Source of the DNA: Actinomycetota bacterium
GTDB taxonomy: Bacteria > Actinomycetota > Acidimicrobiia > Acidimicrobiales > CADCSY01
Assembly (NCBI GenBank): GCA_016781135.1
Contig: JADDQY010000035.1
Coordinates: 17,764-81,763 of the forward strand
Direction: 5' to 3'
Length of the DNA stretch: 64,000 bases
Under the pieces are notes generated by a model. It was not told the DNA's origin. It worked only from the letters and a program-made list of their open reading frames with translations, and did not search any database. How positions within the stretch are numbered: the stretch's first letter is position 1; each line of letters begins with the position of its first letter. A program made the position numbers and the translations under genes. Shown here piece by piece: positions 29,561 to 57,821 of this stretch.

Positions 29561-30058
29561 ATGGATCAGTACCTGCCCCTGGTGGTGATGTTCGTGCTGG
29601 CCGTGGGCTTCGTGGTGCTGAGCATCGGCACCTCGAGGCTCCTGGCTCCCCGGCGGCCGACGCTGGCCAAGCAGGCGCCCTACGAGTGCGGGATCGTCCC
29701 GACTCGTGGACCGGCCCGGCGCTTTCCCGTGCGCTTCTACCTGGTGGCCATGATCTTCATCGTGTTCGACATCGAGATCATCTTCTTGTTCCCATGGGCC
29801 GTGCTGCACCGCCAACTCGGCCTCTACGGTCTGCTGGCGGTCGTGGTGTTCATCGTCCCGTTCTTCTTGTCGTTCCTGTGGGAGGTTGCCGAGGGCGGGC
29901 TCGACTGGGGCCCGATCGCACACCAACGGCCGCTCGGGCTGGCCAACGAGCCCGGCCGCACGACCACCTCGACCGTTCGCCTCGTCGGCCTCGACGGGCG
30001 TGAGCCGGTAGGGGCAGGGGTGGCGACGGGCGAGCAACGAGGCGGGGAGGCGAGCTGA
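29561..30058 (+). CDS. nuoA: NADH-quinone oxidoreductase subunit A (with ~45-aa C-terminal extension)
   Basis: [27 protein letters not shown]. Confidence 0.9.
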
Positions 30059-30621
30059 TGGGCCGGGGCGAGGGTCTCGGCGGGCTCCAGCACAACTTCC
30101 TCACCGGCAACCTCGAGGCCGCCGTCAAGTGGGCCCGGCGCAACAGCATGTGGCCCGCCACCTTCGGCCTGGCCTGCTGCGCGATCGAGATGATGGCCAC
30201 GGGTGCGTCGCACTTCGACCTCAGCCGCTTCGGGATGGAGGTGTTTCGGGCGTCGCCTCGTCAGGCCGACCTCATGATCGTGGCCGGGAGGGTGAGCCAG
30301 AAGATGGCGCCGGTGCTGCGCCAGGTCTACGACCAGATGGTGGAGCCCAAGTGGGTCCTGTCCATGGGGGTGTGTGCTTCCAGCGGAGGGATGTTCAACA
30401 ACTACGCCCTCGTCCAGGGCATCGACCAGGTGGTGCCGGTCGACGTCTACGCACCAGGGTGCCCGCCCAACCCCCAGACGTTGCTGCACTCGATCCTCAC
30501 GCTCCACGAGCTGGTCCGCACCGGCCAGATCCTGCGCCGTCCAGGGACCGGCGCCGGCATCCGAGTCGACGAGCAGGGGGGGGGCGAGCGGGTCCCGGTC
30601 CACGTCGCCACCCCGAGGTAG
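30058..30621 (+). CDS. nuoB: NADH-quinone oxidoreductase subunit B
   Basis: [19 protein letters not shown] and PGCPP (cluster N2 ligands). TGATG overlap with nuoA. Confidence 0.92.
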
Positions 30622-30632
30622 CGGCAACCTCG

Positions 30633-31121
30633 ATGGCCGATGTGGAGCTGCGCCACGGCGTTCCCGAGACCCGGGCCCTCGGCCAGGTCGTCCTCCACCC
30701 CCCCCGGGGCGCCTATCGGGACGTGGTCGCCGGGCTGCGCCAGGAGGGGTTCACCATGTGCGTCGACGTCACCGCCGTCGACTACCTCACCCATCCGGGC
30801 CGATCAGGGCTACCCCCGGGGGTGGCACCGGAACGCTTCGAGGTTGTGGTCACACTCCTGTCGTTCGAGCGGCGGGAGCGGCTGCGGCTACGGGTGCAGG
30901 TGCCCGAGCACGATCCCGTGCTGGACTCGCTGTACGACCTTCACCCCAGCAGCGAGGCTCCGGAGCGGGAGGTGTTCGACATGTTCGGCGTCGCCTTCGA
31001 AGGGCACCCCGACCTGACCCGCATCCTCATGCCCGAGGACTGGGAGGGCCACCCCCTGCGCAAGGACTACTCGGTCGGCCGCATCCCGGTGCAGTTCAAG
31101 GCCGCTGGAGCGCCCCGGTGA
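30633..31121 (+). CDS. nuoC: NADH-quinone oxidoreductase subunit C
   Basis: 162 aa from ATG 30633. EREVFDMFGVAFEGHPDLTRIL and EGHPLRKDY. Confidence 0.9.
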   Translation: MADVELRHGVPETRALGQVVLHPPRGAYRDVVAGLRQEGFTMCVDVTAVDYLTHPGRSGLPPGVAPERFEVVVTLLSFERRERLRLRVQVPEHDPVLDSLYDLHPSSEAPEREVFDMFGVAFEGHPDLTRILMPEDWEGHPLRKDYSVGRIPVQFKAAGAPR

Positions 31122-31128
31122 GGCGGCG

Positions 31129-32460
31129 ATGACCAGCACCGAGCGGGTGTACCCGGGGGCGATCACCTCCGAGGGGGCGCAGGAGCTGGCGGCGCGCGGC
31201 GCGTCCACGGCTGCGGAGCTCCTGCGGGAACAGGGCTCGGTTTTGCGCCTGTCCGAGGTGGCGGCCGCCGAGCAGGCGGACCGGGCCGGTCCCGAGGACG
31301 AGACCATGATCATCAACATGGGCCCGCAGCATCCGAGCACCCATGGCGTGCTGCGCGTGATGCTCGAGCTCGAGGGCGAGACGGTGCTGCGCACCAAGCC
31401 AATCATGGGCTACCTGCACACGGGGATGGAGAAGACCGGCGAGGACCTGACCTACCTGCAGGGCGCCACCAACGTCACCCGGATGGACTACGCCAGCCCG
31501 TTCTTCAACGAGCTGGTCTTCTCGCTCGCCACCGAGGCCCTGCTCGAGGTCGACATCCCGCCCCGGGCCACCTGGATCCGGATGCTGATGTGCGAGCTCA
31601 ACCGGATCTCGTCGCACTTCCTGTTCCTCGCCACCAACGGGATGGACCTGGGTGCCATCTCGATGATCCTCTATGGCTGGCGTGAGCGGGACATGGTGCT
31701 GCAGTTCTTCGAGAAGACGACCGGCTTGCGGATGAACCACAACTACGTCCGCCCCGGAGGGGTTGCCGTCGACCTGCCCGATGGCTGGCGCGATGACGTG
31801 CTGCGCCTCCTCGACGCCCTGCCGTCGCGGCTCGAGGAGTACGACGACCTGATGACCGGCCAGCCCATCTGGCGGGGCCGGACCCAGGGGATCGGCCTGC
31901 TCACCCCGGAGGAGGCGGTGGCGCTCGGCGCCACCGGGCCCATCCTGCGCTCCACCGGCGTTCCCTGGGACCTGCGCCGCGACCTGCCCTACCTCGCCTA
32001 CGACCAGGTCGACTTCAACGTGGTGGTGGGCAGCTACGGGGACGTGTTCGACCGCTACGCCATCCGCCTCAACGAGATCCGAGAGTCGATCGACATCGTC
32101 CGCCAGATCGTCGACCGCATGCCCGGAGGCGACTACCGCGTGCAGGACAGGAAGATCACCCCCCCGCCTCGGGCTCGGATCGACGAGTCGATGGAGGCGC
32201 TGATCCACCACTTCAAGATCTTCACGGAGGGCTTCCGGGTGCCCGAGGGCGAGGTCTACGTGGCGGTGGAGTCCCCCCGGGGTGAGTTGGGCTGCTACCT
32301 GGTGTCCGACGGGAGCGGCAAGCCCTACCGCCTCCACATCCGGGGCCCGTCGTTCTACAACCTGCAGACGCTGCCCCACATGATGCGCGGCGGTCTCATC
32401 CCTGACGCCGTGGCCGTCATCTCCTCGGTGGATCCGATCATGGGCGAGGTCGACCGGTGA
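31129..32460 (+). CDS. nuoD: NADH-quinone oxidoreductase subunit D
   Basis: 443 aa. NMGPQHPSTHGVLR, VTRMDYASPF and a C-terminal VDPIMGEVDR. Confidence 0.93.
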   Translation: MTSTERVYPGAITSEGAQELAARGASTAAELLREQGSVLRLSEVAAAEQADRAGPEDETMIINMGPQHPSTHGVLRVMLELEGETVLRTKPIMGYLHTGMEKTGEDLTYLQGATNVTRMDYASPFFNELVFSLATEALLEVDIPPRATWIRMLMCELNRISSHFLFLATNGMDLGAISMILYGWRERDMVLQFFEKTTGLRMNHNYVRPGGVAVDLPDGWRDDVLRLLDALPSRLEEYDDLMTGQPIWRGRTQGIGLLTPEEAVALGATGPILRSTGVPWDLRRDLPYLAYDQVDFNVVVGSYGDVFDRYAIRLNEIRESIDIVRQIVDRMPGGDYRVQDRKITPPPRARIDESMEALIHHFKIFTEGFRVPEGEVYVAVESPRGELGCYLVSDGSGKPYRLHIRGPSFYNLQTLPHMMRGGLIPDAVAVISSVDPIMGEVDR

Positions 32461-33053
32461 GCCGCCTCAGCCCCGATAACGAGGAGCTGGCCCGCACCAT
32501 CATCGGGCGCTATCCCCGCAGCCGCTCGGCGCTCATCCCGTTGCTGCACGTGGCTCAGGAGCAGGAGGGGTGGGTGAGCCGCGACGCCATGGCCCATATC
32601 GCCGAGCTGCTCGGGATCACCCCTGCCGAGGTCCTGGGGACCTGCAGCTTCTACGGGATGTTCAAGCTCGAGCCCGTCGGGCGTTACGTCGTCGGGGTGT
32701 GCACCAACATCTCCTGCCTGCTGCTCGGCGGCGAGGAGCTGCTCGAGCACTGCGAAGCCCGCCTCGGGGTCAAGGCCGGCGCCACCACCGACGACGGGAT
32801 GTTCACGCTGGAAGACGTGGAGTGCATCGCTGCGTGCACCGACGCACCCTGCCTCCAGGTCAACTACCGCTACTTCCTCAACATCACTCACGATCAGGTT
32901 GACGCCCTGTTCGACGACCTGCGGGCCGGCCGGCGCACCGACGAGGTGCCCGTTCACGGCACGCTGACCCGCGTGCGCCAGCACGTCGCCCCGGAGCGGT
33001 GGTCGGGCCACGGCGCCGAGGGCCTCCCTCTCCCGCCCGGCCAGGCGCGCTGA
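32457..33053 (+). CDS. nuoE: NADH-quinone oxidoreductase subunit E
   Basis: 198 aa. 2Fe-2S ligands in VGVCTNISC and CIAACTDAPC. GTGA overlap with nuoD. Confidence 0.9.
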   Translation: MSRLSPDNEELARTIIGRYPRSRSALIPLLHVAQEQEGWVSRDAMAHIAELLGITPAEVLGTCSFYGMFKLEPVGRYVVGVCTNISCLLLGGEELLEHCEARLGVKAGATTDDGMFTLEDVECIAACTDAPCLQVNYRYFLNITHDQVDALFDDLRAGRRTDEVPVHGTLTRVRQHVAPERWSGHGAEGLPLPPGQAR

Positions 33054-34396
33054 TGGCGGTCAGCGACGCCGCCCCCATCATTTCCACCCGCCTTGCCCGC
33101 CCCGACGGCCACACCTTGGCCGGCTACGAGGCGACGAGGGGCTACACCGCCCTGCGCAAGGCGCTGGGCATGGGCCCCGACGCGGTGCTGGAAGAGGTCA
33201 AGGCGGCCAACCTCCAGGGCCGGGGCGGCGCCGGCTTCCCCGCCGGGGCGAAGTGGTCGTTCCTGCCCAAGGACGTCTTTCCCCGCTACTTCGTGGTCAA
33301 CGGCGACGAGAGTGAGCCCGGCACCTCGAAGGACCGTCCGCTCATGGAGCGCGACCCCCACCAGCTCATCGAGGGGCTGCTCATCTCCTGCTTCGCGGTG
33401 CGGGCGGCCCAGGCCTTCATCTACGTGCGGGGCGAGATGGCGCTGGCCCAAGAGCGTCTCGCCACCGCCCTGAACGAGGCCTACGCCGCCGGCTACGTGG
33501 GTCGCGACATCATGGGGTCGGGCTGGTCGCTCGACATCGTGTTGCACTGGGGGGCGGGCGCCTACATCGTCGGCGAGGAGACCGCCCTCATCGAGAGCCT
33601 CGAGGGCCAGCGGGGCATGCCCCGGCTCAAGCCGCCGTTCTTCCCGGCAGCCAAGGGCCTGTACCTGCAGCCAACCGTGGTCAACAACGTCGAGACGCTG
33701 TCGAACATCCCCTGGATCGTCACCCACGGCGGCGCCGCCTTTGCCGCCCTCGGCACCGAGAAGGCGGCGGGCACCCGGCTGTTCGCCCTGTCGGGTCACG
33801 TGCGCCGCCCCGGGGTCTACGAGGTCGAGATGGGCACCACCACCTTCCGAGACCTGGTGGAGGCCCCGGTGTACGGCGGCGGCATCCGTCACGGCAACAA
33901 GCTCAAGGCGTTCATCCCCGGGGGGGCGTCGGCGCCGTGGTTCTACCCCGAGCAGCTCGACTTGGCGCTGGACGCCAGCGTGGTCGGCCCCGCCGGGTCC
34001 ATGCTCGGCTCGGGCGCGGTGGTGATCATGGACGACACCACCTGCGCGGTGCGGGCGGCGTGGCGGCTGGTCCGGTTCTTCGCCCACGAGTCGTGTGGCA
34101 AGTGCACCCCCTGCCGGGAGGGGGGGGCGTGGCTGGAGAAGATCCTGCGCCGCATCCTCGACGGCCACGGCCGGGAGGACGACATCGAGCTCCTGCTCGA
34201 CGTGGGCGACAACATCAGCCCGGGACCCTTCCCCCACCCGCCGCTCGACGGCGTAGCGGCCGTACCGTTCCCGTTCAAGCAGACCACGATCTGCCCCCTC
34301 GGGCCCTCGGCGGTGTCGCCCATCCACTCCTCGATCCTGCGTTTTCGAGACGAGTACCTGATCCACATCAAAGACGGCAGGTGCCACCTTGGCTGA
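33053..34396 (+). CDS. nuoF: NADH-quinone oxidoreductase subunit F
   Basis: 447 aa from ATG 33053 (TGATG overlap). GRGGAGFP (FMN), GAGAYIVGEETALIESLEG, and ESCGKCTPCREG (cluster N3). Confidence 0.93.
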   Translation: MAVSDAAPIISTRLARPDGHTLAGYEATRGYTALRKALGMGPDAVLEEVKAANLQGRGGAGFPAGAKWSFLPKDVFPRYFVVNGDESEPGTSKDRPLMERDPHQLIEGLLISCFAVRAAQAFIYVRGEMALAQERLATALNEAYAAGYVGRDIMGSGWSLDIVLHWGAGAYIVGEETALIESLEGQRGMPRLKPPFFPAAKGLYLQPTVVNNVETLSNIPWIVTHGGAAFAALGTEKAAGTRLFALSGHVRRPGVYEVEMGTTTFRDLVEAPVYGGGIRHGNKLKAFIPGGASAPWFYPEQLDLALDASVVGPAGSMLGSGAVVIMDDTTCAVRAAWRLVRFFAHESCGKCTPCREGGAWLEKILRRILDGHGREDDIELLLDVGDNISPGPFPHPPLDGVAAVPFPFKQTTICPLGPSAVSPIHSSILRFRDEYLIHIKDGRCHLG

Positions 34397-37295
34397 GCAG
34401 ACCGAGCAGGCGACCAAAACCACGGTCACCGTGGTCCTCGACGGGCGGGAGATCGAGGCCAATCCCGGCGAGCTGGTGATCGCCGCCGCCGAGCGCAACG
34501 GCGTCTACATCCCCCGCTTCTGCTACCACCCTCGGATGCGCCCGGTGGGCATGTGCCGCATGTGCATCGTCGAGATCGACTCGGGTCGGGGGCCCGCCCT
34601 GCAGCCGTCGTGCATGCTGCCCGTCGCCGAGGGGATGAAGGTCGACACCCAGTCGGCCCTCACCAAGAAGGCCCAGGACGGGGTGCTCGAGTTCCTCCTC
34701 ATCAACCATCCCCTCGACTGCCCGGTGTGCGACAAGGGCGGGGAGTGCCCCCTCCAGGACCAGACGCTGGCCTTCGGTCCCGGGGAGACCCGCTTCGTCG
34801 AGGAGAAGCGCCACTTCGAGAAGCCCATCCCGATCAGCGAGCTGGTCTACCTCGACCGCGAGCGCTGCGTCCTGTGCGACCGCTGCACCCGCTTCGCCAA
34901 GGAGGTGGCCGGCGACCCGTTGATCTCCTTCATCGACCGAGGGAACCACACCCAGGTCAACACCTTCCCCGACGACCCCTTCTCCTCCTACTTCAGCGGC
35001 AACACCGTGCAGTTGTGCCCCGTGGGGGCGCTGCTGGCCCGGCCCTACCGCTTCCGGGCCCGGCCCTGGGACCTCGACCAGGTCGAGTCCACGTGCACCG
35101 CCTGTGCCTTTGGGTGCCGAGTGGCGCTGCAGTCGTCGGCCAACCGTCTGGTACGCAAGCTCGGCGTCGACGTCGACCCGGTCAACCAGGGATGGACGTG
35201 CGACAAGGGCCGTTTCGACTTCGAGGCGGTCAACAGCGACGACCGCCTGGGCACCCCGCTGGTGCGCTCCACCGCCGGGCCGGTCAACGGGAACGGGGGC
35301 AGCCCGGTCGACCTCGCGCCAACGTCGTGGTCCGAGGCGTGGGACCGCGTCATCGAGGGCATCGGGCGGGCCCGCCTGCGACCCGGTCCTGAGTCGATCG
35401 CCGTGCTCGGTGGGGCTCGCCTCACCAACGAGGACGCCTACGCCTGGTCGAAGCTCGCCCGCAGCGTGCTCGCCACCGACTCGGTCGATGCCCAGTTGGG
35501 CGACGGGCTGCCCGCCGAGGTCGTGGTCGGCCTGCCCCGGGCCTCGATCGACGCCGCCTGTGCCGCCGAGACCGTCCTTCTGCTGGCGCCCGATCTGAAG
35601 GAGGAGCTGCCAGTGCTCTACCTGCGCCTGCGCCAAGCGGTGGTGGACGGGGGCCTCAACCTCGTCGAGGTCAGCCCGGTGGCGACCGGGATGACCCCCT
35701 ACGCCACGGTGTCGGTGCGCTACCGGCCGGGCGAGGCCGCCGAGGTGGTGCGAGCGCTGGTCTCGGGTGACGGCGGTGTCGGCGCCGGCGGTCAGTCCGA
35801 TGCCATGCGCCGGGCGGGCGAGCTGCTGCGCAAGGGCTCGTTGGTGTGCGTGCTCGGCCGCCCGTCGCTGGCCGAGCGGGCCCAGCCGATCGCCGCCGCC
35901 GCCGCCGCCGTGCTCGACGCGTTGCCAGCCACGACGTTCCTGTCGGCGCTGCGTCGGGCCAACGTCCACGGTGCCCTCGACATGGGCTTGGCGCCGGGCA
36001 TCCTCCCGGGAAGGGTGTCGCTCGACGAGGGCCGACGCTGGTTCGCCGAGGCCTGGCCGGCGGTCCCCGCCAGCCGGGGCCTCGACGCCGAGGGCATTAT
36101 CGCCGCCGCCGCCGAGGGCCGGGTGGCGTGCCTGATCCTCCTCGGCGCCGACCCGCTGGCCGACTTCCCCGACCGCTCGCTCGCCCGGCGGGCCCTCGCC
36201 GGGGCCGGCTTCGTGATCGCCGTCGACTCCTTCCTCACCGCCTCGTCCCGCCGGGCCGACGTGGTACTGCCGGCTGCGACCTACGGCGAGAAGGGGGGCA
36301 CGACCACGAACATCGAGGGCCGGGTCAGCCGGCTCCACCAGAAGATCACCGCGCCGGGGACGGCCCGCCCCGACTGGATGATCGCCGCCGAGCTGGCCTG
36401 GCGGCTGGGAGGCGACCTCGGCTTCGGGTCGGAGGACGAGGTCTGGGACGAGATCGAGCGCCTGGCACCCTCGCACCACGGACTCACCCGAGCCCGCCTG
36501 GCCTCGGCCGAGGGGTTCGACGGGCTGCTCGCCGGCGGGGTGGCCGAGGTCGGCGATCACGACGCCCCTCCCACCATGTCCGGAGCCGATGCCCCTGGCA
36601 TCCAGGGCCCGCTGGGCCACACCAAGGACGACAGCCTGGCCACGACCGGGATGGGCCATGACGTCCACCCCGATCCCCAGGCAGGGGCGGAGCCGGCGGG
36701 GGCGCCGGCGGGGGTGGCCAGGGCCGAGGCGGCGGCTGGCGCCGGCGGATCGGGCTACGCCGATGGCGACACGCCGGGGGAGGTGGAGCGCGACGCTGAC
36801 GCCGTGGAGCGGTCGGTGGAGGCCGAGGGCAGTGGCCGCTCGGGTGCCTTCCGGCCCTCGGGGGGTGGCGGCGATCGGGGCTCCACCCCCCAGCGCCCGT
36901 CCCCGCTGCGCTGGTCGTTGGTCGAGCCGCCGCCCTCGCCCCCGCCGCTCGACCGCTACTCGCTGCGCCTGGTGTCGGCCCGAAAGCTCTACGACGACGG
37001 GACCCTGGTCCAGAACTCGCCCTCGCTGGTGCCGCTGGCCCCCGGGGCTCGCATCCGCGTCAACCCCGCCGACCTGTCGCCCCTCGGGGTGGTCGCGGGC
37101 AGCAAGCTCCAGGTGAGCAGCAGCCAGGGTCGGGTGGTGCTGGAGGCGGCGCCCGACCCCGCCGTGCCCCAGGGCAGCGCCGTGGTCGCCTTCAACCAGC
37201 CCGGACCAGGAGCCGCCGATCTCATCGACTCGACCCAGCCGGTCACCGAGGTGCGCATCGAGACGCTCAGCGGGGCGTCGGGACCTACGCCATGA
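34389..37295 (+). CDS. nuoG: NADH-quinone oxidoreductase subunit G (968 aa, with low-complexity insertion)
   Basis: N-terminal 2Fe-2S/4Fe-4S motifs CYHPRMRPVGMCRMC, HPLDCPVCDKGGECPLQ and CVLCDRCTRF. Molybdopterin-like body. A roughly 130-aa Ala/Gly/Glu/Pro-rich insertion at about 36550..36950. Confidence 0.9.
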   Translation: MAEQTEQATKTTVTVVLDGREIEANPGELVIAAAERNGVYIPRFCYHPRMRPVGMCRMCIVEIDSGRGPALQPSCMLPVAEGMKVDTQSALTKKAQDGVLEFLLINHPLDCPVCDKGGECPLQDQTLAFGPGETRFVEEKRHFEKPIPISELVYLDRERCVLCDRCTRFAKEVAGDPLISFIDRGNHTQVNTFPDDPFSSYFSGNTVQLCPVGALLARPYRFRARPWDLDQVESTCTACAFGCRVALQSSANRLVRKLGVDVDPVNQGWTCDKGRFDFEAVNSDDRLGTPLVRSTAGPVNGNGGSPVDLAPTSWSEAWDRVIEGIGRARLRPGPESIAVLGGARLTNEDAYAWSKLARSVLATDSVDAQLGDGLPAEVVVGLPRASIDAACAAETVLLLAPDLKEELPVLYLRLRQAVVDGGLNLVEVSPVATGMTPYATVSVRYRPGEAAEVVRALVSGDGGVGAGGQSDAMRRAGELLRKGSLVCVLGRPSLAERAQPIAAAAAAVLDALPATTFLSALRRANVHGALDMGLAPGILPGRVSLDEGRRWFAEAWPAVPASRGLDAEGIIAAAAEGRVACLILLGADPLADFPDRSLARRALAGAGFVIAVDSFLTASSRRADVVLPAATYGEKGGTTTNIEGRVSRLHQKITAPGTARPDWMIAAELAWRLGGDLGFGSEDEVWDEIERLAPSHHGLTRARLASAEGFDGLLAGGVAEVGDHDAPPTMSGADAPGIQGPLGHTKDDSLATTGMGHDVHPDPQAGAEPAGAPAGVARAEAAAGAGGSGYADGDTPGEVERDADAVERSVEAEGSGRSGAFRPSGGGGDRGSTPQRPSPLRWSLVEPPPSPPPLDRYSLRLVSARKLYDDGTLVQNSPSLVPLAPGARIRVNPADLSPLGVVAGSKLQVSSSQGRVVLEAAPDPAVPQGSAVVAFNQPGPGAADLIDSTQPVTEVRIETLSGASGPTP

Positions 37296-40018: not shown

Positions 40019-40025
40019 GGCGACG

Positions 40026-41484: not shown

Positions 41485-41496
41485 GGTCGGCCCGAG

Positions 41497-43449: not shown

Positions 43450-43451
43450 GG

Positions 43452-44981: not shown

Positions 44982-45000
44982 GGACGCATCGCTGCGGGGG

Positions 45001-46602: not shown

Positions 46603-46610
46603 GCGCGAGA

Positions 46611-48614: not shown

Positions 48615-48630
48615 GGGCCACGCCGTGAGC

Positions 48631-49797: not shown

Positions 49798-49967
49798 GAG
49801 AAAACAGCGCGCCGAAGGCGCACGTTTGGCCTTTCTCGGCGGTCGAGCGGAACGGGGCAGCTGGACGGATGGCACCAAGGGGAGGGGCCCGCCCCGAGCG
49901 CCAGCGAGGGGTGAGAGGGGTCCCGCGTGATGACAGGACCCGTCCAGCGGTGGGGGTGGCAACGTGA
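49794..49967 (+). CDS. candidate relay small ORF (57 codons) bridging nuoD2 and nuoH2
   Basis: ATG 49794 forms an ATGA overlap with the nuoD2 stop (49795..49797). The frame is open to TGA 49965..49967, a GTGA overlap with the nuoH2 GTG at 49964. Product [57 protein letters not shown]. Confidence 0.3.
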
Positions 49968-50995
49968 CGCTCGCGCTGGAGCTCGCCTACTGGCAGCAGC
50001 TCGCCATCAAGGTCCTCGCCATCCTCGTCATCGTGCCCACGGCCACGGCCATCATCGTCCAGACCTTCCTCTTCAAGATGATGGCCCACATGCAGAGCCG
50101 GCTCGGCCCGATGGAGGCCGGCCCCCACGGCACCCTCCAGCTCATGGCCGACGGGGCCAAGTTCGTGCAGAAGGAGCTGCTGGCCCCGGCTCGGGCCGAC
50201 CGGCGGGTGTTCACCCTGGCCCCCGTGGTGGTGCTGCTGTCCACCTTCTTGTTGTTCGTGGTCATCCCCGCTGGTCCGGGCATCGTGGCCGAGAACCTCG
50301 ACCTCGGCATCTTCTTCGCCCTGGCGGTGTCGTCGATCTCGGTCCTCGGCGTGCTCATGGCCGGTTGGGCCTCGGCCAACAAGTACGCCCTCATGGGCGG
50401 GCTGCGGGCGGCCGGTCAGCTCATCGCCTACGAGCTGCCCCTGGTCCTGGCTGTGGTGGGGGTGGTCATCCAGGCAGGCGATCTCAGCCTGCAGGGCATC
50501 GTGCGGGCCCAGGCCGAGGGGGAGATCTTCGGCTTCGGGCTGATCGGTCTGCCGTTCGTGCTCACTCAGTTCCTCGGCTTCGCCCTGTTCCTGATCGCGA
50601 CCCAGGCCGAGCTCACTCAGCCTCCCTTCGACATGCCGGTGGCAGAGTCGGAGCTGGTGGCCGGCTTCCAGGTGGAGTACAGCGGCTTGCAGTTCCTCTA
50701 CTTCTACCTCGGCGAGTTCGGCGCCGCCTTCGCCTTCTCGGCGCTGGCCGCCACCATGTTCCTCGGCGGCTGGTGGGTCCCGGGGCTCGATCTCGAAGGC
50801 GGCCTGCTGGCGAACGTCGTGGGTCCGGTGGTGCTGTTCGCCAAGACGATGGCGGTCGCCTTCGTCATCTTCTGGATCCGCTTCACCTACCCTCGTCTGC
50901 GCGAGGACCAGCTCCAGAGCTTCGCCTGGAAGTACCTCATCCCCCTGTCGCTCGTGAACATCCTGGTGACAGGGGCGTTCAAGGTCATCTTCTAA
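49964..50995 (+). CDS. nuoH2: NADH-quinone oxidoreductase subunit H, second copy
   Basis: 343 aa. [20 protein letters not shown] and [16 protein letters not shown]. Confidence 0.9.
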
Positions 50996-51018
50996 CCGCT
51001 CGAGAGGAGGAACAGCCC

Positions 51019-51495
51019 ATGCCCGAGCTCCCCGGTCTGATGAAGGGCCTCAACGTGACCCTGCGCACCATGTTGCGCCCGGCGGTCACCACCCAGTACC
51101 CCCACGTGAAGGAGGCTCCTCCCAGCCGGGCGCGGGGGGTGATCGCCCTCAAGGAGGAGAACTGCACGGTGTGCATGCTCTGCGCCCGGCAGTGCCCGGT
51201 CTGGTGCATCTACATCGAGGGCCACAAGACCAAGGCGCCGCCACGGCGGGCCGGGGGCAAGCCCCGCACGGTGCAGTTGCTCGACCGCTTCGACATCGAC
51301 TACTCGCTGTGCATGTACTGCGGGATCTGCGTGGAGGTGTGCCCCTTCGACGCCCTGTTCTGGAGCCCCGAGTACGAGTACTCCGAGCCCCACATCGCCG
51401 ACCTGCTCCATGACAAGGACCGCCTGGGCCAGTGGATGGAGGCCGTCCCCGAACCGGAGCCGCTCGAGGCCGGCGCCGTGGCCAAGAAGAAGTAG
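51019..51495 (+). CDS. nuoI2: NADH-quinone oxidoreductase subunit I, second copy
   Basis: 158 aa from ATG 51019. SD GAGAGGAGG upstream. [12 protein letters not shown] and [12 protein letters not shown]. Confidence 0.9.
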
Positions 51496-51615
51496 AGCGG
51501 GTGCCGACCGGGCCTGGGCGACGCCGCCGACGACTGGCCGCGCCCCCGAAAGCGTGCAAAGGTTCGACGTGCAGCACGGGACCCTTGCACGAGAGGTAGA
51601 TCGGCGGTCTCATCC

Positions 51616-52134
51616 TTGATTGCCCAGAACATCGCCTTCACCATCCTCGCCGCGGTGGCCACGCTGGCCGCCGTGCGAGTGGTGACCACCCGCAACGTCG
51701 TCCACGCCGCCCTCTACCTGGTGATGGTGCTGGCCAGCGTGGGTGCGCTCTACGTGCTGCTGGTCGCCGAGTTCGTGGCCGCGGTGCAGATCCTGATCTA
51801 CATCGGCGCCATCGTCGTACTGTTCTTGTTCGGGATCATGCTCACCCGGGCCACGATCGGCGCCGACGCCGGCCTCGACAACGACCAGCGGTGGATCGCG
51901 GCGGTCACCGGGCTGTTCCTGCTCGGAGTGCTCACCTTCGTGCTGGTCGACGCCTTCGGCGACGACCGCCTGCCCAGTCTCGAGAACATGAGCCGTGAGG
52001 CGCTCACGGCCGAGCGAGGCACCGGCGCCGTGGGCGACGCCATCTTCTCCACCTATCTCGTCCCCTTCGAGGTGGTCTCGGTGCTCCTGCTCGCCGCCCT
52101 GGTCGGCGCCATCGTCCTGGCACGGAGGGAGTGA
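51616..52134 (+). CDS. nuoJ2: NADH-quinone oxidoreductase subunit J, second copy
   Basis: 172 aa. [36 protein letters not shown] start inferred by alignment with nuoJ. Confidence 0.85.
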   Translation: MIAQNIAFTILAAVATLAAVRVVTTRNVVHAALYLVMVLASVGALYVLLVAEFVAAVQILIYIGAIVVLFLFGIMLTRATIGADAGLDNDQRWIAAVTGLFLLGVLTFVLVDAFGDDRLPSLENMSREALTAERGTGAVGDAIFSTYLVPFEVVSVLLLAALVGAIVLARRE

Positions 52135-52214
52135 TGTCGTCGTTCGCTGCGCTCTCGTGCCTGACCGCCGACGTCCGACGGCCGCTGGCCACGCCGGTCG
52201 GGGAAGGAACCTGA
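52134..52214 (+). CDS. candidate relay small ORF (26 codons) bridging nuoJ2 and nuoK2
   Basis: ATG 52134 overlaps the nuoJ2 TGA (52132..52134). TGA 52212..52214 overlaps the nuoK2 ATG (52214). Product MSSFAALSCLTADVRRPLATPVGEGT. Confidence 0.3.
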   Translation: MSSFAALSCLTADVRRPLATPVGEGT

Positions 52215-52522
52215 TGCTGGTCAACCAGTTCCTGCTGCTCGGGGCCGTGCTGTTCTGCGTCGGGGTCTACGGCGTGCTCGCCCGGCGCAACGGCGTGCTC
52301 GTGCTCATGTCCATCGAGCTCATCCTCAACGCCGTCAACATCAACCTGCTGGCCCTGGGGTCGCTCCAGGGGCCGCAGGCGGCGGTGGTCGGGCAGGTCT
52401 TCGCCCTGTTCGTGATCACCATCGCCGCCGCCGAGGTGGGCGTTGGCCTGGCCATCGTGCTGCTCATCTACCGCAACCGCCACTCGGTCGACCTCGACGA
52501 GGTCGACCTCATGAAGGGGTAG
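52214..52522 (+). CDS. nuoK2: NADH-quinone oxidoreductase subunit K, second copy
   Basis: 102 aa from ATG 52214. RRNGVLVLMSIELILNAVNINL, AAAEVGVGLAI. Confidence 0.9.
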   Translation: MLVNQFLLLGAVLFCVGVYGVLARRNGVLVLMSIELILNAVNINLLALGSLQGPQAAVVGQVFALFVITIAAAEVGVGLAIVLLIYRNRHSVDLDEVDLMKG

Positions 52523-52531
52523 CGGCAGGCG

Positions 52532-54718
52532 GTGCTCGAGAACGCCTGGATCATCCCTGCGATCACGTTCGCCTCGTTCTGGCTGATCCTGTTCCTCGGC
52601 AAGCGCCTTCCCAAGCACGGTGCCGAGATCGGCATCGCCGCCGTGGGAGCCGCCTTCGTGCTTTCGTGCGTCGCCGTTGCCCAGTGGATCGACCGCCCGG
52701 CGACCGAGATGGTCACGGCGGCCACCGGCGCCGGGGAGGAGCACGGCGGGGCCGGCGAGGAGCACGGCGCCGAGCCCGAAGAACACGGCGGAGCCGGCGA
52801 GGAGCACGGCGCCAAGCCCGAACAGGAGGCAGGCCACGCCCTCGGCCAGGTCCGGATCCTCGCTGCCGAGGCGGACGGCGAGCACGGGGAGGAGGCCGAG
52901 CACGAGGTTGAGCCCATCCGGGCCGCGGTGGAGCGCAACGTCACGTGGTTCTCGATCGGCGGCATCGACGTCACCGTGGGCACCGCCGTCGACGGCCTGA
53001 CCGTGGTGATGTTGTTCACGGTCACGATGATCTCGCTGCTGGTGCACGTCTTTTCGACCAACTACATGCACGGTGACGTTCGTTTCACCTACTTCTTCGC
53101 CGCCCTGTCGCTGTTCACCACCGGGATGCTGCTGCTGGTGGTCTCGAGCAGCACCCTCCAGGCCCTCTTCGGCTGGGAGCTCATGGCCGTGTGCAGCTTC
53201 ATGCTGATCGGCCACTGGTGGGAGAAGAAGGAGAACTCCAACGCCGCCATGAAGGCGTTCCTCACCACCCGGACGGGAGACGTCGGGCTGCTGGTGGGCA
53301 TCGTCACGTTGTTCTTTGCCGCTGGCCAGACCTTCGACATCGCCCGGATCAACGAGGCGGCGTTGAGCCGAGGAGTGCCCCAGACCGCGCTGGTGGTGGG
53401 CGCGGCCGCCTTGCTCATCGGGGTGATCGGCAAGTCGGCCCAGTTCCCGCTGCACACCTGGCTCCCCGACGCCATGGCCGGCCCCACCCCGGTGTCGGCC
53501 CTGATCCACGCCGCCACCATGGTGGTGGCCGGCGTCTACCTCGTGGCTCGCCTCTACGGGGTGTTCTGGTCGGCGTTCGACATCGGAGCAGGCGGCGCCA
53601 ACCCCGTCGCCATCGTCGGCGGCATCACCATCCTCATCGCCGCCGCCCTGGCCTTCGTGCAGCGCGACATCAAGAAGGTGCTCGCCTACTCCACGGTGAG
53701 CCAGCTGGGGTACATGGTCATGGCGCTGGGGGTGGGGGCGTGGACGGCGGGCATCTTCCACCTCTTCACCCATGCCTTCTTCAAGGGACTCCTCTTCCTC
53801 GGCGCCGGTTCGGTGAGCCACGCCGTCCACAGCTTCGACATGAAGGCCGACATGGGCGGGTTGCGCAAGTACATGCCGACGACCTTCGCCACCTTTCTGA
53901 TCGGCTCGCTGGCCCTGGCCGGGCTGCCGCCGCTCGCCGGGTTCTGGTCCAAGGACGAGATCCTCCTCGGTGCCGCCGAGAACGGCTACCGGTTCTTCGA
54001 GGTCCTCGGCCTCGTGGGCGCGTTCATGACCGCCGCCTACATGACCCGCTGCGTCTACCTCACGTTCTTCGGGGAATACCGGGGCCACGGGCATCCTCAC
54101 GAGTCGCCGCCGGCGATCACCGTGCCTCTGGCGGTGCTGGCGGTGTTCTCGGTCGGAGCCGGCTTTCTCAACGCCCCCGGGTTCGAGCTGTTCGGCACGC
54201 TCACCGAGAACCGGGTGTACCTCCGGGCCGGCGTGCCCCATCACCCGTTCGAGGTGTTCCCAGCGGTGGTGTCGACCGTGGTGGTGCTGGCGGCGCTGGC
54301 CCTCGGCTACCTGCTGTTCTTCCAGCGGCGCCTTCCCCGTGGGGTCACCAGCCGCAACCCTGCCGCCCGGGCCGGCTACGGCCTGCTCGTCAACAAGTAC
54401 TACCTCGACCACCTCTACACCGGGGTCATCGTCGGGTCGGTCAAGGGGGCCATTGCCCGAGGCGCGTACTGGATCAACCAGAAGGTGATCGACGGGGTGG
54501 TCAACGGGATCGGGATCGCCTCCAAGCGCGCCGGCGGCTGGGTCTACCGCCACGTCGACCAGGAGGTGGTCGACGGTGCGGTGAACGGCGCCGGGTTCGG
54601 CGCCGAGGGCTTCGGGGGCATCCTGCGCACGATCCAGACGGGCCGGGTGCAGCAGTACGGTGCCCTGCTGTTCGGCGCCACCGCGGTGCTGGCGCTCGGC
54701 CTGGTCATCTTCGTCTAA
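52532..54718 (+). CDS. nuoL2: NADH-quinone oxidoreductase subunit L, second copy (728 aa, His/Glu-rich loop insertion)
   Basis: GKSAQFPLHTWLPDAMAGPTPVSALIHAATMV and VLAYSTVSQLGYM. A roughly 65-aa acidic EEHG-repeat insertion lies between TM2 and TM3. Confidence 0.9.
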   Translation: MLENAWIIPAITFASFWLILFLGKRLPKHGAEIGIAAVGAAFVLSCVAVAQWIDRPATEMVTAATGAGEEHGGAGEEHGAEPEEHGGAGEEHGAKPEQEAGHALGQVRILAAEADGEHGEEAEHEVEPIRAAVERNVTWFSIGGIDVTVGTAVDGLTVVMLFTVTMISLLVHVFSTNYMHGDVRFTYFFAALSLFTTGMLLLVVSSSTLQALFGWELMAVCSFMLIGHWWEKKENSNAAMKAFLTTRTGDVGLLVGIVTLFFAAGQTFDIARINEAALSRGVPQTALVVGAAALLIGVIGKSAQFPLHTWLPDAMAGPTPVSALIHAATMVVAGVYLVARLYGVFWSAFDIGAGGANPVAIVGGITILIAAALAFVQRDIKKVLAYSTVSQLGYMVMALGVGAWTAGIFHLFTHAFFKGLLFLGAGSVSHAVHSFDMKADMGGLRKYMPTTFATFLIGSLALAGLPPLAGFWSKDEILLGAAENGYRFFEVLGLVGAFMTAAYMTRCVYLTFFGEYRGHGHPHESPPAITVPLAVLAVFSVGAGFLNAPGFELFGTLTENRVYLRAGVPHHPFEVFPAVVSTVVVLAALALGYLLFFQRRLPRGVTSRNPAARAGYGLLVNKYYLDHLYTGVIVGSVKGAIARGAYWINQKVIDGVVNGIGIASKRAGGWVYRHVDQEVVDGAVNGAGFGAEGFGGILRTIQTGRVQQYGALLFGATAVLALGLVIFV
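52730..52831 (+). repeat. in-frame tandem repeat encoding (G)AGEEHG(A/G)xPE units in nuoL2
   Basis: Two adjacent 42-nt units (52748..52789 and 52790..52831) differ at a few positions. They are preceded by a partial unit. Translation: GAGEEHGGAGEEHGAEPEEHGGAGEEHGAKPEQE. Confidence 0.8.
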
Positions 54719-54746
54719 CCGTCGAACGGGGGAGTGGGAAACGCAC

Positions 54747-56273
54747 ATGGACGCCCTGGATGACCTGGCGCTGACCGCGGCGGTGTTCCTTCCCCTTGTG
54801 GGAGCGGTGGTGATGCTGCTCACTCCCCGCCGGCAGGAGACCGTCCACAAGGTGATCGCCTTGCTCACCACCCTGGCGACCTTCGCCGTCGGGGTCTACG
54901 TGCTCGTGCGGTTCGACTACCGCCGGGCCGACCTGTTGCAGTTCAACGTGAACGCGTCGTGGATCGACGTCATCAACAGCCGGTACATCCTCGGCGTCGA
55001 CGGCATCTCCCTGCCGCTTCTGATCCTGTCGATGTTCGTGTGCGTGCTGGTGGTGATCTACAGCTGGAACCACTTCCCCGAGCCCCACAACCCCAAGGCG
55101 TTCCTCCTCCTCGTCCTGGTGCTGGAGACAGGGATGAACGGGACCTTCGTGGCCCAGGACCTGATCCTGTTCTTCGTGTTCTTCGAGGTCGTGCTGTTGC
55201 CGATGTACTTCATGATCGGGGTGTGGGGCGGTGAGCAGCGCCAGTACGCCGCCATCAAGTTCTTCCTGTTCACCCTGTTCGGATCGGCGCTCATGATCCT
55301 CAGCTTCCTGGCCCTGTTCTTCCGCGGTGGTCAGACCTTCGCCATCCAAGAGCTCATTGCCGTGGCGTCCGACACCATCCCCCGCTCGACCCAGCTGCTG
55401 ATCTTCGGCGGCCTGTTCATGGGTTTCGCCATCAAGGTCCCGATGTTCCCGTTCCACACCTGGCTGCCTGACGCCCACACCCAGGCCCCGACCCAGGGCT
55501 CGGTGATCCTCGCCGCCATCCTGCTGAAGCTCGGCACCTACGGGTTCGTGCGCATCGCCATCCCCATCCTCCCCGAGGCTGCCCGGGTGTGGGCCCCGTG
55601 GATCGGTGGCCTCGCCGTCATCGGCATCATCTACGGCGCTCTCGGATGCCTGGCCCAGAGCGACATGAAGCGGCTCATCGCCTTCTCGTCGGTGGCCCAC
55701 ATGGGCTACGTCATGCTTGGCATCGCCACCCTCACCGACTTCGGGATCAACGCCGCCGTCTTCGGGATGGTCGCCCACGGCCTCATCACCGGGATGCTCT
55801 TCTTCGTGGCCGGATCGGTGAAGGACCGGTTCCACACGCTCGAGCTCTCCCGCCTCGGTGGCCTGCTGATCCAGGCGCCGCGCATGGGCTGGATCCTCGG
55901 CTTCTGCGCCATGGCCTCGCTCGGCCTGCCCGGCCTCGCCGGGTTCTGGGGCGAGTTCCCGGCGATCCTCGCCGCCTACAACCCCGCTCCAGGGCTGTCC
56001 CGGGAGCTGTTCCGGGTGTACATGGTGGTCGCCGCCATCGGCACCGTCTTCGCCGCCGGCTACCTGCTGTGGATGCTCCAGCGAGCCGCCTTCGGCACCC
56101 CCACCAAGGAGTTCGCCGGCCACCCCATCCCCGACATGCGCTGGCCCGAGTACCTGGCCTGGACGCCGATGCTCCTGCTCATCGTGGTGCTGGGCATCTT
56201 CCCCAACCTGTTGTTCGGGTTGACCAACCGCGCCGTCGACACTGCACTCGCTGCCTTCGGCGGGGGTGGCTGA
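54747..56273 (+). CDS. nuoM2: NADH-quinone oxidoreductase subunit M, second copy
   Basis: 508 aa from ATG 54747. FEVVLLPMYFMIGVWG, KVPMFPFHTWLPDAHTQAPTQGSVILAAI and LIAFSSVAHMG. Confidence 0.9.
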   Translation: MDALDDLALTAAVFLPLVGAVVMLLTPRRQETVHKVIALLTTLATFAVGVYVLVRFDYRRADLLQFNVNASWIDVINSRYILGVDGISLPLLILSMFVCVLVVIYSWNHFPEPHNPKAFLLLVLVLETGMNGTFVAQDLILFFVFFEVVLLPMYFMIGVWGGEQRQYAAIKFFLFTLFGSALMILSFLALFFRGGQTFAIQELIAVASDTIPRSTQLLIFGGLFMGFAIKVPMFPFHTWLPDAHTQAPTQGSVILAAILLKLGTYGFVRIAIPILPEAARVWAPWIGGLAVIGIIYGALGCLAQSDMKRLIAFSSVAHMGYVMLGIATLTDFGINAAVFGMVAHGLITGMLFFVAGSVKDRFHTLELSRLGGLLIQAPRMGWILGFCAMASLGLPGLAGFWGEFPAILAAYNPAPGLSRELFRVYMVVAAIGTVFAAGYLLWMLQRAAFGTPTKEFAGHPIPDMRWPEYLAWTPMLLLIVVLGIFPNLLFGLTNRAVDTALAAFGGGG

Positions 56274-56314
56274 TGACTCGTTTTCTCCCGCCTGATCCGG
56301 CCGAGGGTGACTGA
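56273..56314 (+). CDS. candidate relay mini-ORF (13 codons) between nuoM2 and nuoN2
   Basis: ATG 56273 overlaps the nuoM2 TGA (56271..56273). Product MTRFLPPDPAEGD. TGA 56312..56314 lies 1 nt before the in-frame nuoN2 GTG at 56316 and inside the alternative start at 56307. Confidence 0.25.
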   Translation: MTRFLPPDPAEGD

Positions 56315-57821
56315 GGTGGAGCCCGTGTTCAGCGCGCCCACGGTCGACTTCCACGCCTTTGGACCGGAGATCGTCCTCGTGGTCGTGCTGGGCGTGCTGT
56401 TGCTGGTCGACCTCGTCTTCGAAGAGCGTGCTCGCTGGGCCTCCTCGACCATCGCCGGGATCGGGCTGCTCGCCGCCCTGGTGCCGGTCCTCACCCTGGC
56501 CATCGACGGCGGCGACCGGACCCTGTTCGGGGGGGCCTACGTCGTCGACAACTTCGCCCTGGTGCTCAAGGGCTTGTTCCTGGTGGCGGGGTACGTCACC
56601 GTGCTCATCAGCACCGACTACATCGGCGACGGCGACTACTACGAGGGCGAGTACTACTTCATGCTGCTGTCGTCGTTGCTGGGCATGACCGTCATGGCGT
56701 CCGCCCGCGACCTGCTGAGCATCTTCGTGGCCCTCGAGCTGCTGTCGATTCCCGCCTACCTGCTGGCCGGATGGCGCAAGCGCGATCTACGGGGCAACGA
56801 GGCCTCGCTGAAGTACTACCTGCTCGGGGTGTTCGCCTCGGCGGTGATGCTCTACGGGATGTCACTGGTGTTCGGTGTGGCCGGCTCCACGCTGCTGTCC
56901 GATGTCGGCGCCGCCGTGTCCAGAGGGCCTCGCTCGGCGCCGGTCATCACCGTGGGGATCGTGTTCATCGTCGTCGGCTTCGCCTTCAAGGTCTCGGCGG
57001 TGCCGTTCCACACCTGGGCCCCCGACACCTACGAAGGCGCCCCCACCCCGATCACGGCCTTCTTGTCGGTGGCCTCCAAAGCCGCCGGCTTCGTGGCCCT
57101 GGTGCAGTTGGTGTTCATCGGCTTCCTCGGTCGTGACGACGTGTGGGCCCCCATGTTCTGGGTGCTCGCCGCTGTCACCATGACCGTCGGCAACCTCATC
57201 GCCCTGCGCCAGACCAACGTCGTGCGCCTCCTCGCCTACTCCTCGGTGGCCCAGGCCGGGTTCATCCTGGCCCCCTTCGCCGTCGCTGCCGACATCCCCG
57301 CTGCCCGGGGTGGCGTGGGCTCGGCCACCGGCGCGGTCGTCACCTACCTGTTGATCTACTCGGCCATGAACCTGGGAGCTTTCGCCGTGGTCATGGCCGT
57401 CGCCCGCAAGACCCGCTCCGGGGAGATCGCGTCCTACGGCGGGCTGTTCCAGTACGCGCCGGGGCTGACCGTGCTCATGACCATCTTCTTGTTCGCCCTG
57501 GCCGGGATCCCGCCCCTCGCCGGGTGGTACGCCAAGTTCGTGGTGTTCAAGTCGCTGCTCGACGCCGGGACGGCAGCCGCCATCGCCCTCGCCGTGGTCG
57601 GCGTGGTCAACTCGGTGATCGGGCTCTTCTACTACGCCTCGGTGGCTCGGGAGATGTGGATGAGCCCGGTGCCCGACGGTCAGGAGGTCACGCCCGTCCG
57701 GGTCCCCGCCGCCTTGGGTGCCAGCCTGGCCCTGTGCGCGGCGGCGACACTCGCCATCGGCGTCGTTCCCAACCTCGTCGCCCGCCTCGGAAACCTGGCC
57801 CTGTTCGGGGCGCTCCCGTAA
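56307..57821 (+). CDS. nuoN2: NADH-quinone oxidoreductase subunit N, second copy
   Basis: 504 aa. LELLSIPAYLLAG, FKVSAVPFHTWAPDTYEGAPTPITAF, LLAYSSVAQAGF. Start GTG 56307 or GTG 56316. Confidence 0.9.
   Translation: MTEVEPVFSAPTVDFHAFGPEIVLVVVLGVLLLVDLVFEERARWASSTIAGIGLLAALVPVLTLAIDGGDRTLFGGAYVVDNFALVLKGLFLVAGYVTVLISTDYIGDGDYYEGEYYFMLLSSLLGMTVMASARDLLSIFVALELLSIPAYLLAGWRKRDLRGNEASLKYYLLGVFASAVMLYGMSLVFGVAGSTLLSDVGAAVSRGPRSAPVITVGIVFIVVGFAFKVSAVPFHTWAPDTYEGAPTPITAFLSVASKAAGFVALVQLVFIGFLGRDDVWAPMFWVLAAVTMTVGNLIALRQTNVVRLLAYSSVAQAGFILAPFAVAADIPAARGGVGSATGAVVTYLLIYSAMNLGAFAVVMAVARKTRSGEIASYGGLFQYAPGLTVLMTIFLFALAGIPPLAGWYAKFVVFKSLLDAGTAAAIALAVVGVVNSVIGLFYYASVAREMWMSPVPDGQEVTPVRVPAALGASLALCAAATLAIGVVPNLVARLGNLALFGALP

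Follow-up and report, generated by a model that had tools for sequence, protein, structure and literature searches.

A tryptophan-type complex I operon without an NADH module, in tandem with a canonical nuo operon in an Acidimicrobiales bacterium

The window analyzed here, a stretch of 64,000 nucleotides (nt) with a G+C content of ~70%, originates from an Acidimicrobiales bacterium and carries two complex I (nuo) operons in tandem, within a single same-strand (+) array of respiratory genes (Table 1). Gene limits were drawn from six-frame translation and the G+C content at third codon positions (GC3), and products were named with NCBIfam and Pfam models. An earlier note, made from the letters of the sequence, had placed nuoA-N at 29561-46542 and a second operon, nuoABCDHIJKLMN, at 46611-57821 on the + strand; the models confirmed every subunit of both at these coordinates, and the 68 nt that the note had counted between the nuoN1 stop and the nuoA2 GTG start are indeed there. 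The first operon (nuo1) encodes all of NuoA to NuoN, the NADH module (N-module; NuoE, F, and G) included, as in a 14-subunit NDH-1, and its description as a complete 14-gene operon holds for gene content but not for continuity, with 1166 nt interrupting nuoK1-nuoL1. The second operon (nuo2) was said to lack nuoE, F, and G, which the family-model naming of all 11 products bears out. This arrangement has already been described and is of a known kind, because the same pairing is published for 'Candidatus Actinomarinales' (PMC7771536) and Streptomyces, in keeping with the partial second nuo clusters that the note had mentioned in other actinobacteria. The interest of the locus rests on the Trp-bearing quinone site of nuo2, its link to a methyltransferase, and its probable separate promoter, together with the question of its electron donor.

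Structurally, nuo2 retains the iron–sulfur ligands of the quinone-reducing module and is remodelled at the quinone site. NuoB2 has the equivalents of the N2-ligand cysteines C63, C64, C129, and C158 (CC...C...C), NuoI2 carries two CxxCxxCxxxCP motifs as ligands for both NuoI clusters, and NuoD2 has HPATHG, and to this extent the earlier claim that all Q-module motifs are kept was correct. It fails at two positions of NuoD2, which a residue-by-residue alignment to Nqo4 of Thermus thermophilus placed unambiguously: Tyr87 is replaced by Trp and Asp139 by Gln, leaving only the His of the canonical His38/Tyr87/Asp139 triad. Trp occupies position 87 in all aligned relatives of NuoD2, and Gln139 is accompanied by Asp or Glu at position 135 in every orthologue captured by pattern. 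In NuoH2, hydrophobic residues replace the E. coli pair E36/R37 in nearly all relatives, and Val replaces E216. The site of NuoD1 is canonical (HPSTHG with His38, TRMDY with Tyr87, and NGMDLG with Asp139; also GYLHTGMEK), and the NuoD1 orthologue of a compared locus, L088, has the same His38, Arg85-region, and Tyr87 motifs. Tyr87 is retained by 54 of 62 non-actinobacterial NuoD sequences of short and long types, and Asp139 by most; only a few of these sequences have a known taxon. Natural variants of this Tyr are rare. Trp87 is found outside Acidimicrobiales in Actinomarinales and in orphan nuoD2-like genes of the class Actinomycetes, and NuoCD of two methanogen lineages acquired it independently. 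Degli Esposti's review notes the Tyr87-to-Trp change in NuoD of piericidin-producing Streptomyces and, citing work in Yarrowia, states that Tyr-to-Trp severely lowers decylubiquinone activity and gives inhibitor resistance. We found no statement in the literature of Trp as a marker of the whole actinobacterial NuoD2 clade.

Functionally, such a site could belong to an enzyme that is not a forward quinone reductase, and that uses another acceptor or lets menaquinol and the proton-motive force drive ferredoxin reduction. Two of the three canonical proton-donating residues are gone in all relatives examined, NuoH2 is without E36, R37, and E216, and methanogen NuoCD proteins share the Trp. We nonetheless consider a non-forward role quite unlikely, since NuoD2 retains His43 and always has an acidic residue at position 135, one turn earlier, and since neither the Q-tunnel subunits nor the pump residues of NuoL, M, N, and K have been lost. 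Moreover, the Tyr-to-Trp mutants of Yarrowia reportedly still reduce short-chain quinones and keep coupled activity, as against the reduced activity and resistance described above, and because of this the Trp site appears compatible with quinone reduction.

Evolutionarily, nuo2 appears, from its sequences, to be an old and strongly conserved actinobacterial lineage, of which we found no such description in the literature. A NuoD2 scan of one genome per species gave 80 loci, all from Acidimicrobiia or unclassified Actinomycetota, throughout which the full nuoABCDHIJKLMN order is kept; identities across relatives are 79-92% for NuoD2 and 75-93% for NuoB2. The nuo1 and nuo2 paralogues are only 33-46% identical, NuoC and NuoI being lowest (33%), and their NuoD subunits differ in type: NuoD1 is of the canonical long type, whereas NuoD2 is without a ~25-residue segment (PPPR...SMEALIHHFK..TEGF) and aligns in one stretch with short forms, including the Bacillus-type and Fpo models and the forms named from Chloroflexota and archaea. 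A recent duplication of nuo1 was rejected on these grounds. The top-scoring models for NuoA2 and NuoD2 are PRK07756 and PRK12322, which we take to be Bacillus-type models, with scores under the equivalog cut-offs for A and D. In a search of 1.84 billion cluster representatives, the next full-length NuoD2 relatives were 55% and 49% identical, with ~40% below these. A neighbor-joining tree united Acidimicrobiia NuoD2 with that of Actinomarinales in 197 of 200 replicates, and both with NuoD-like proteins of the class Actinomycetes in 129 of 200, while NuoD1 fell with the long canonical sequences.

In the class Actinomycetes, the Trp87-type nuoD-like gene stands alone, with no other nuo gene within 10 kb, at a conserved site between folE-folP-folBK-DUF3180 and panC/nadB/nadC (loci L083, 9058-11179; L081, 7065-11191; L084, 7022-11212; L085, 10001-11143). 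Its hosts are Knoellia, Kineosporia, and Dermatophilaceae-like metagenome-assembled genomes, and presumably these orphan genes correspond to Streptomyces nuoD2. Some members (P0245 and P0251) have degenerate HPxxHG motifs, and the NRHDW motif occurs in 115 of 119 relatives of P0245.

The earlier note had allowed for nuo2 being silent or decaying in relatives. This we regard as extremely improbable: none of the 11 reading frames is disrupted, GC3 values are 0.84-0.94 where computed, the genes are strongly conserved across families, and the cluster persists in genomes of ~1 Mb. When aligned against E. coli MG1655 numbering, the pump residues tested in NuoL, M, N, K, and A are all kept, except for H305Q in NuoN. 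The element taken as a promoter below is likewise conserved, and apart from the degenerate Rex-like operator of the window we found nothing that favours decay.

Immediately downstream, starting 33 nt past nuoN2, lies a gene for an S-adenosylmethionine-dependent methyltransferase of the NDUFAF7/MidA family (PF02636), whose Protein Data Bank matches are 4f3n (1e-19), 1zkd (4e-17), and 5ztz ('NDUFAF7 homolog', 3e-13). A PF02636 gene comes next after nuoN2 in 40 of 51 Acidimicrobiales loci and also follows the Actinomarinales operon. Within Actinomycetes, it lies less than 3 kb from the orphan nuoD2-like gene in three of four contexts, overlapping the Trp-type nuoD-like gene in Knoellia and standing ~2 kb from it in Kineosporia and in one 7.3-Mb genome, with none near the nuoD-like gene of the fourth; these methyltransferases are 38-39% identical to that of the window. 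The linkage to nuo2 or nuoD2 is thus seen in three actinobacterial lineages, and we found no description of it in the literature. In mitochondria, NDUFAF7 symmetrically dimethylates Arg85 of the 49-kDa subunit (bovine GLLHRGTEK), ~7 Å from cluster N2; the position is Thr in Thermus, and is modified in Paracoccus and unmodified in E. coli. NuoD2 has Arg69 followed by Gly at the bovine Arg85 position, within a GYMHRGYEK motif found in 80 of 80 orthologues, and the 23 residues from Arg69 to Trp92 equal the distance from bovine Arg85 to Tyr108. Because NuoD1 has Thr at the target position (GYLHTGMEK), where NuoD2 has Arg-Gly, we infer that the enzyme modifies NuoD2 and not NuoD1, which predicts a dimethyl-arginine at Arg69 and, if true, would make a modification studied elsewhere in mitochondria accessible to bacterial genetics. 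As a side observation, a short-type nuo operon of Chloroflexota (L090, 8851-19781; BCDHIJK-(64 aa)-LMN, in which no nuoA was called before nuoB) has a class I methyltransferase gene of another kind (Methyltransf_11/25, not PF02636) behind it, and a similar Methyltransf_11/25 gene directly precedes the PF02636 gene in L081 and L084.

As judged from motifs conserved ahead of nuoA2, nuo2 is most likely transcribed from a promoter of its own, which may be under redox control. In the window, a -10-like TAGGCT ends 8 nt ahead of the nuoA2 GTG, and a TAnnnT hexamer is found 5-24 nt ahead of nuoA2 in 67 of 69 loci, against control counts of 0/80 before nuoD2, 1/78 before nuoH2, and 0/51 before nuoN2; TTGGC at about -40 often precedes this element across loci. 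Pattern scans of the 68-nt nuoN1-nuoA2 gap found no terminator and no E. coli-type promoter, and the gap folds no better than shuffled sequences, without unusual structure. It is the conservation of the -10 element across 69 loci that favours a separate nuo2 promoter and disfavours a single 25-gene operon, which was set aside. A GTGAA-N4-TTCAC palindrome also stands at a fixed position (-29..-41) before nuoA2 in 18 of 69 loci, where 0.0105 would be expected per 420 nt; we take this palindrome, in full TTGTGAA-N4-TTCACAA, to be the Rex operator consensus known from Streptomyces work. The window itself encodes the redox-sensing repressor Rex, at the head of a rex-hemA-hemC-(cobA/hemD)-hemB-hemL array laid out identically in L088 and with the rex-hemA-hemC-hemD order of Streptomyces. 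Operator-like matches number three in the window versus 0.19 expected: one (9733-9750) overlaps the rex start, and another, ATGTGAGAACTTTCACTA, with three mismatches, precedes the first gene of the array that runs from a Rieske/cytochrome b6-type (b6c) cluster into nuo1, a position likewise occupied in L088 (one mismatch) and L087. We found no description in the literature of a nuoA2 promoter with a Rex-type operator. Such a promoter and operator would predict nuo2 induction at higher NADH/NAD+.

As for the electron donor, ferredoxin and F420H2 had both been proposed in the earlier note. A 2x[4Fe-4S], NuoI-like ferredoxin is encoded where the note had put it, within a bc-type operon, but nothing links it specifically to nuo2 as a donor. 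Its homologues across Acidimicrobiia have a constant 137 amino acids (aa) at 75-91% identity, and its gene is always followed by the cytochrome b gene in the loci compared (window, L087, and L088). The cluster order is common to L088 (9449-14921), where it leads directly to nuoA1, and to the part seen in L087 (9441-11458), and the cluster is distinct from the usual actinobacterial QcrCAB (QcrC model, 26 bits versus a cut-off of 200). Because it is conserved in the cluster preceding nuo1, 22 kb from nuo2, the ferredoxin is most simply read as a subunit of this unusual Rieske/cytochrome b complex. Around nuo2 itself, we clustered GC3-supported open reading frames (ORFs) from 50 loci, taken from upstream of nuoA2 (28 loci without nuo1) or from between nuo1 and nuo2 (22); only unrelated housekeeping genes recur, and a donor module encoded beside nuo2 was rejected.

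An F420H2:menaquinone oxidoreductase resembling Fpo, as suggested by both the earlier note and the Actinomarinales paper (PMC7771536), appears highly doubtful. In its favour, F420 reportedly occurs widely among Actinobacteria, and NuoD2 and FpoD are both short and align end to end in one stretch. Against this, every nuo2 subunit scores far under the NCBIfam Fpo cut-offs (score/cut-off: FpoD 319/600, FpoH 247/475, FpoL 392/1050, FpoK 105/145, FpoI 53/180, FpoC 43/220, and FpoJ 37/110), and NuoD1 outscores NuoD2 on FpoD, leaving nuo2 no nearer to Fpo than nuo1. The note had seen no fpoF-like gene; there is none among the window ORFs scanned, and no FpoF/FrhB-like gene among the recurrent nuo2 neighbours in the 50 loci. 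Its argument had rested on an F420 biosynthesis gene (cofC) opening the window, which is unconfirmed: the 5' fragment has no Pfam match in the one frame scanned, and the first complete gene is gpsA (258-1286). The cut-offs for cyanobacterial NDH-1 subunits were missed as well (NdhH 335/583, NdhI 66/302, and NdhJ 57/175), and membership of nuo2 in either family was rejected.

Taken together, our preferred reading, held tentatively and at less than even confidence, is that nuo2 encodes a separately transcribed, N-module-less pump that would take electrons from a soluble ferredoxin-type donor at NuoI2 and pass them to menaquinone at the remodelled site. We favour it because NuoD2 is kin to short-type enzymes, at least one of which is encoded in an operon without an N-module; because the N-module-facing subunits are poorly conserved between the paralogues; and because nuo2 is separable from nuo1 in relatives. 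Mechanistically, complex 2 would have no dedicated NADH module, and single electrons would be delivered to NuoI2 by a low-potential soluble protein, for which a ferredoxin-type carrier is the likeliest candidate. Candidate docking elements are the C-terminal tail of NuoI2 (DLLHDK.RLGEWMETVP..EAG..KK), acidic, then Lys-rich, and conserved among relatives, and an N-terminal extension of NuoC2, ~180 aa long and rich in Pro, Ala, and Glu, which lies ahead of the 30-kDa domain and aligns from residue 1 in the closest relatives, with a varying length in others. In NDH-1, the basic tail of NdhS probably catches ferredoxin, and the Lys-rich FpoI tail of Methanothrix would offer a further analogy, for which a literature check gave no match. 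From the NuoI2 clusters, electrons would pass through N2 to menaquinone, in a site formed by the retained His43, Trp92 in place of Tyr, Gln144 and Glu140 in place of Asp, and a hydrophobic NuoH loop, while L2, M2, and N2 would pump protons; Arg69, close to cluster N2, would be dimethylated by the co-encoded enzyme during assembly. NuoL2 also carries a His/Glu-rich repeat (GAGEEHG..., residues 58-135) in the loop between helices 2 and 3; some orthologues lack it and others have it longer by up to roughly 80 residues, it is always acidic and His-rich, and it may bind metal.

Several observations weigh against a ferredoxin-driven enzyme. The only ferredoxin of the window belongs to the b6c-type cluster, and the recurrent neighbours of nuo2 in the 50 loci include neither a ferredoxin gene nor any other redox gene. 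Nuo1, with NuoEFG, is within 7 kb of nuo2 in 37 of the 65 loci that have enough upstream sequence, its L1-M1-N1 end lying 68-749 nt upstream of nuoA2 in 15 of the 37 and 1.8-7 kb upstream, with unrelated genes between, in 22. 'Ca. Actinomarinales' keeps both clusters despite genomes of ~1 Mb. The palindrome ahead of nuoA2 in the window, TCTGAAGGCGATCAC, is degenerate, with four mismatches to the consensus, and a Rex-type operator suggests control by NADH/NAD+, which suits an NADH-linked enzyme equally well. The main rival is an NADH-dependent isozyme, in which Nuo2 would borrow the NuoEFG of nuo1, giving two complex I variants with different quinone sites. The proximity of the operons, their retention in the streamlined Actinomarinales, and the Rex-like operators before both the b6c-nuo1 array and, in relatives, nuoA2, which would fit joint control by NADH/NAD+, are all in accord with borrowing, and there is a published precedent in Syntrophobacter fumaroxidans, with one nuoEFG set and two sets of the other genes. 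We nevertheless judge it, though a serious rival, somewhat unlikely, as in 28 of the 65 loci the 3-10 kb that could be inspected upstream contain no nuo1, and NuoD2 falls among short-type NuoD, for which the one Chloroflexota operon inspected (L090) has no N-module genes. The least conserved paralogue pairs, moreover, are NuoC and NuoI, which face the N-module in complex I structures.

A bolder, and unlikely, reading is that actinobacterial Nuo2 constitutes a distinct enzyme class and not a complex I that has merely lost its head, with a rebuilt quinone site, a methylation-tuned N2, and exchange with ferredoxin, perhaps in reverse or together with the ferredoxin-bearing Rieske/b6 complex, in place of a plain transfer of NADH electrons to menaquinone; were it true, a 'mitochondrial' NDUFAF7-type assembly step would be placed in Gram-positive bacteria. 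In agreement with the earlier note, the literature has treated the electron donor of 11-subunit complex-I-like enzymes, which are widespread, as an open question since at least 2011. The window offers a clean, compact example in a lineage with a cultured relative, Aquihabitans, and presumably a second, Ilumatobacter.

Among known systems, the closest is that of 'Ca. Actinomarinales', a different order of Acidimicrobiia, in which Lopez-Perez et al. (2020; PMC7771536) described a full nuo cluster next to an 11-gene cluster without E, F, and G, and proposed, citing the Streptomyces avermitilis genome, a possible use of F420 by the truncated one, 'like other actinobacteria'. We found this arrangement as locus L089, where NuoD2 is 55% identical to that of the window, has Trp at position 87 (P0121/P0272), and belongs to an operon followed by a PF02636 gene; heliorhodopsin and iron-uptake genes separate the two clusters there, in contrast to the 68-nt gap of the window. 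The paper makes no mention of the Trp site, the methyltransferase link, the promoter, or the operator. The Actinomycetes relatives examined, presumed counterparts of the Streptomyces nuo2 system (nuoA2... and a separate nuoD2), share the NuoD clade, the Trp (NRHDW), the HRG motif, and the short form with the window, but have Glu where the window NuoD2 has Gln at position 139, and an orphan nuoD2 near fol/pan/nad genes instead of 11 genes in one array.

Beyond these relatives, 11-subunit complex-I-like enzymes have been reported from actinobacteria and many other phyla, a class defined in PMC4758237 by genomes without any N-module; in the window, nuoE1, F1, and G1 lie 10-14 kb upstream of nuo2. 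The Bacillota enzymes (Bacillus cereus group and Desulfitobacterium) have the same nuoABCDHIJKLMN order and an N-terminal NuoC extension said in the literature to be unique to Bacillaceae, but occur in organisms without any nuoEFG. Cyanobacterial and plastid NDH-1 matches nuo2 in its 11 core subunits and in lacking an N-module, with ferredoxin donating at NdhI and plastoquinone as acceptor; its NdhH, unlike NuoD2, keeps the Tyr and Asp and has the ~25-aa segment, and no Ndh-specific subunit genes were seen, although no search was aimed at these small subunits. Archaeal Fpo resembles nuo2 in its homologous core subunits and its short form of NuoD, but also has FpoF and FpoO, neither of which was found among the window ORFs scanned. 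Lastly, mitochondrial and Paracoccus complex I shares the methyltransferase family and the Arg-Gly target context, but is a full NADH-dependent enzyme with Tyr at the quinone site, whereas in the window the methyltransferase is linked to the N-module-less paralogue.

Table 1 Coordinates and supporting evidence for the features of the window
Feature	Position	Strand	Evidence or remark
nuoA2	46611-46976	+	NCBIfam; GTG start; NuoA D79, E81 kept
nuoB2	46967-47467	+	NCBIfam; N2 ligands CC/C/C
nuoC2	47454-48614	+	NCBIfam; PF00329 only at residues 214-362
nuoD2, short type	48625-49797	+	NCBIfam; GTG start; 390 aa; identical to database protein P0001
NuoD2 His39/His43			Thermus His34/His38; kept
NuoD2 Arg69	48829-31 (codon)		Bovine Arg85 position
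NuoD2 Trp92 (NRIDWLS)	48898-900 (codon)		Thermus Tyr87; replaced
NuoD2 Glu140			Thermus Thr135; acidic residue one turn before Gln144
NuoD2 Gln144	49054-56 (codon)		Thermus Asp139; replaced
nuoH2	49964-50995	+	NCBIfam
nuoI2	51019-51495	+	NCBIfam; conserved C-terminal tail 51400-51492 ending KKK
nuoJ2	51616-52134	+	NCBIfam
nuoK2	52214-52522	+	NCBIfam; NuoK E36, E72 kept
nuoL2	52532-54718	+	NCBIfam; His/Glu-rich loop insert 52703-52936
nuoM2	54747-56273	+	NCBIfam
nuoN2	56307-57821	+	NCBIfam
NDUFAF7/MidA-family methyltransferase gene	57855-59045	+	PF02636, 112 bits vs cut-off 23.3
nuo2 promoter-like region	46573-46602	+	TTGGCC 46573-78; palindrome 46582-96; -10-like TAGGCT 46597-602
rex, redox-sensing repressor gene	9735-10529	+	NF003992, 338 bits vs cut-off 226
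Rex-operator-like palindrome	24116-24133	+	37 nt ahead of first gene of b6c-nuo1 array
Small membrane protein opening respiratory array	24170-24610	+	162-171 aa counterpart at same place in L087, L088
2x[4Fe-4S] NuoI-like ferredoxin	24614-25027	+	Pfam Fer4 families
Cytochrome b6-like	25029-25811	+	PF00033/PF00032 (families for the b6-like/subunit IV-like pair)
Subunit IV-like	25840-26619	+	PF00033/PF00032 (families for the b6-like/subunit IV-like pair)
Rieske	26635-27480	+	PF00355
Dihaem cytochrome c	27485-28681	+	PF13442
Conserved membrane protein of unassigned family	28678-29487	+	Translation
nuoA1	29561-30058	+	NCBIfam
nuoB1	30058-30621	+	NCBIfam
nuoC1	30633-31121	+	NCBIfam
nuoD1	31129-32460	+	NCBIfam
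nuoE1	32457-33053	+	NCBIfam
nuoF1	33053-34396	+	NCBIfam
nuoG1	34389-37295	+	NCBIfam
nuoH1	37292-38494	+	NCBIfam
nuoI1	38739-39443	+	NCBIfam
nuoJ1	39443-40018	+	NCBIfam
nuoK1	40026-40331	+	NCBIfam
Insertion nuoK1/nuoL1, 1166 nt	40332-41496	+	K1-L1 gap comparison, PF10708, GC3
nuoL1	41497-43449	+	NCBIfam
nuoM1	43452-44981	+	NCBIfam
nuoN1	45001-46542	+	NCBIfam

The interruption of nuo1 between nuoK1 and nuoL1 is absent from 19 of 19 related loci, in which the gap between these genes is 3-161 nt. It contains an ORF with a DUF2510 domain (40521-~40800; PF10708, E = 3.8e-8) and a membrane-protein ORF (40801-41484) in different frames, the GC3 coding signal changing frame near 40780, and an 11-nt near-repeat marks both of its edges (40324-34 and 41496-506). 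It could be a frameshifted inserted gene, or be polar on nuoLMN1. Also within nuo1, NuoG1 (968 aa) has a ~150-aa low-complexity insert rich in Ala, Gly, Pro, and Glu (residues ~700-850), positioned after the molybdopterin-like domain and ahead of the C-terminal Molydop_binding domain. Past the nuo array, the window ends with an acetyl-CoA synthetase gene (60560-62533, +) and a membrane H+-pyrophosphatase gene (62576-63976, -) that is cut by the window end; an H+-pyrophosphatase gene also adjoins the Chloroflexota nuo operon in L090.

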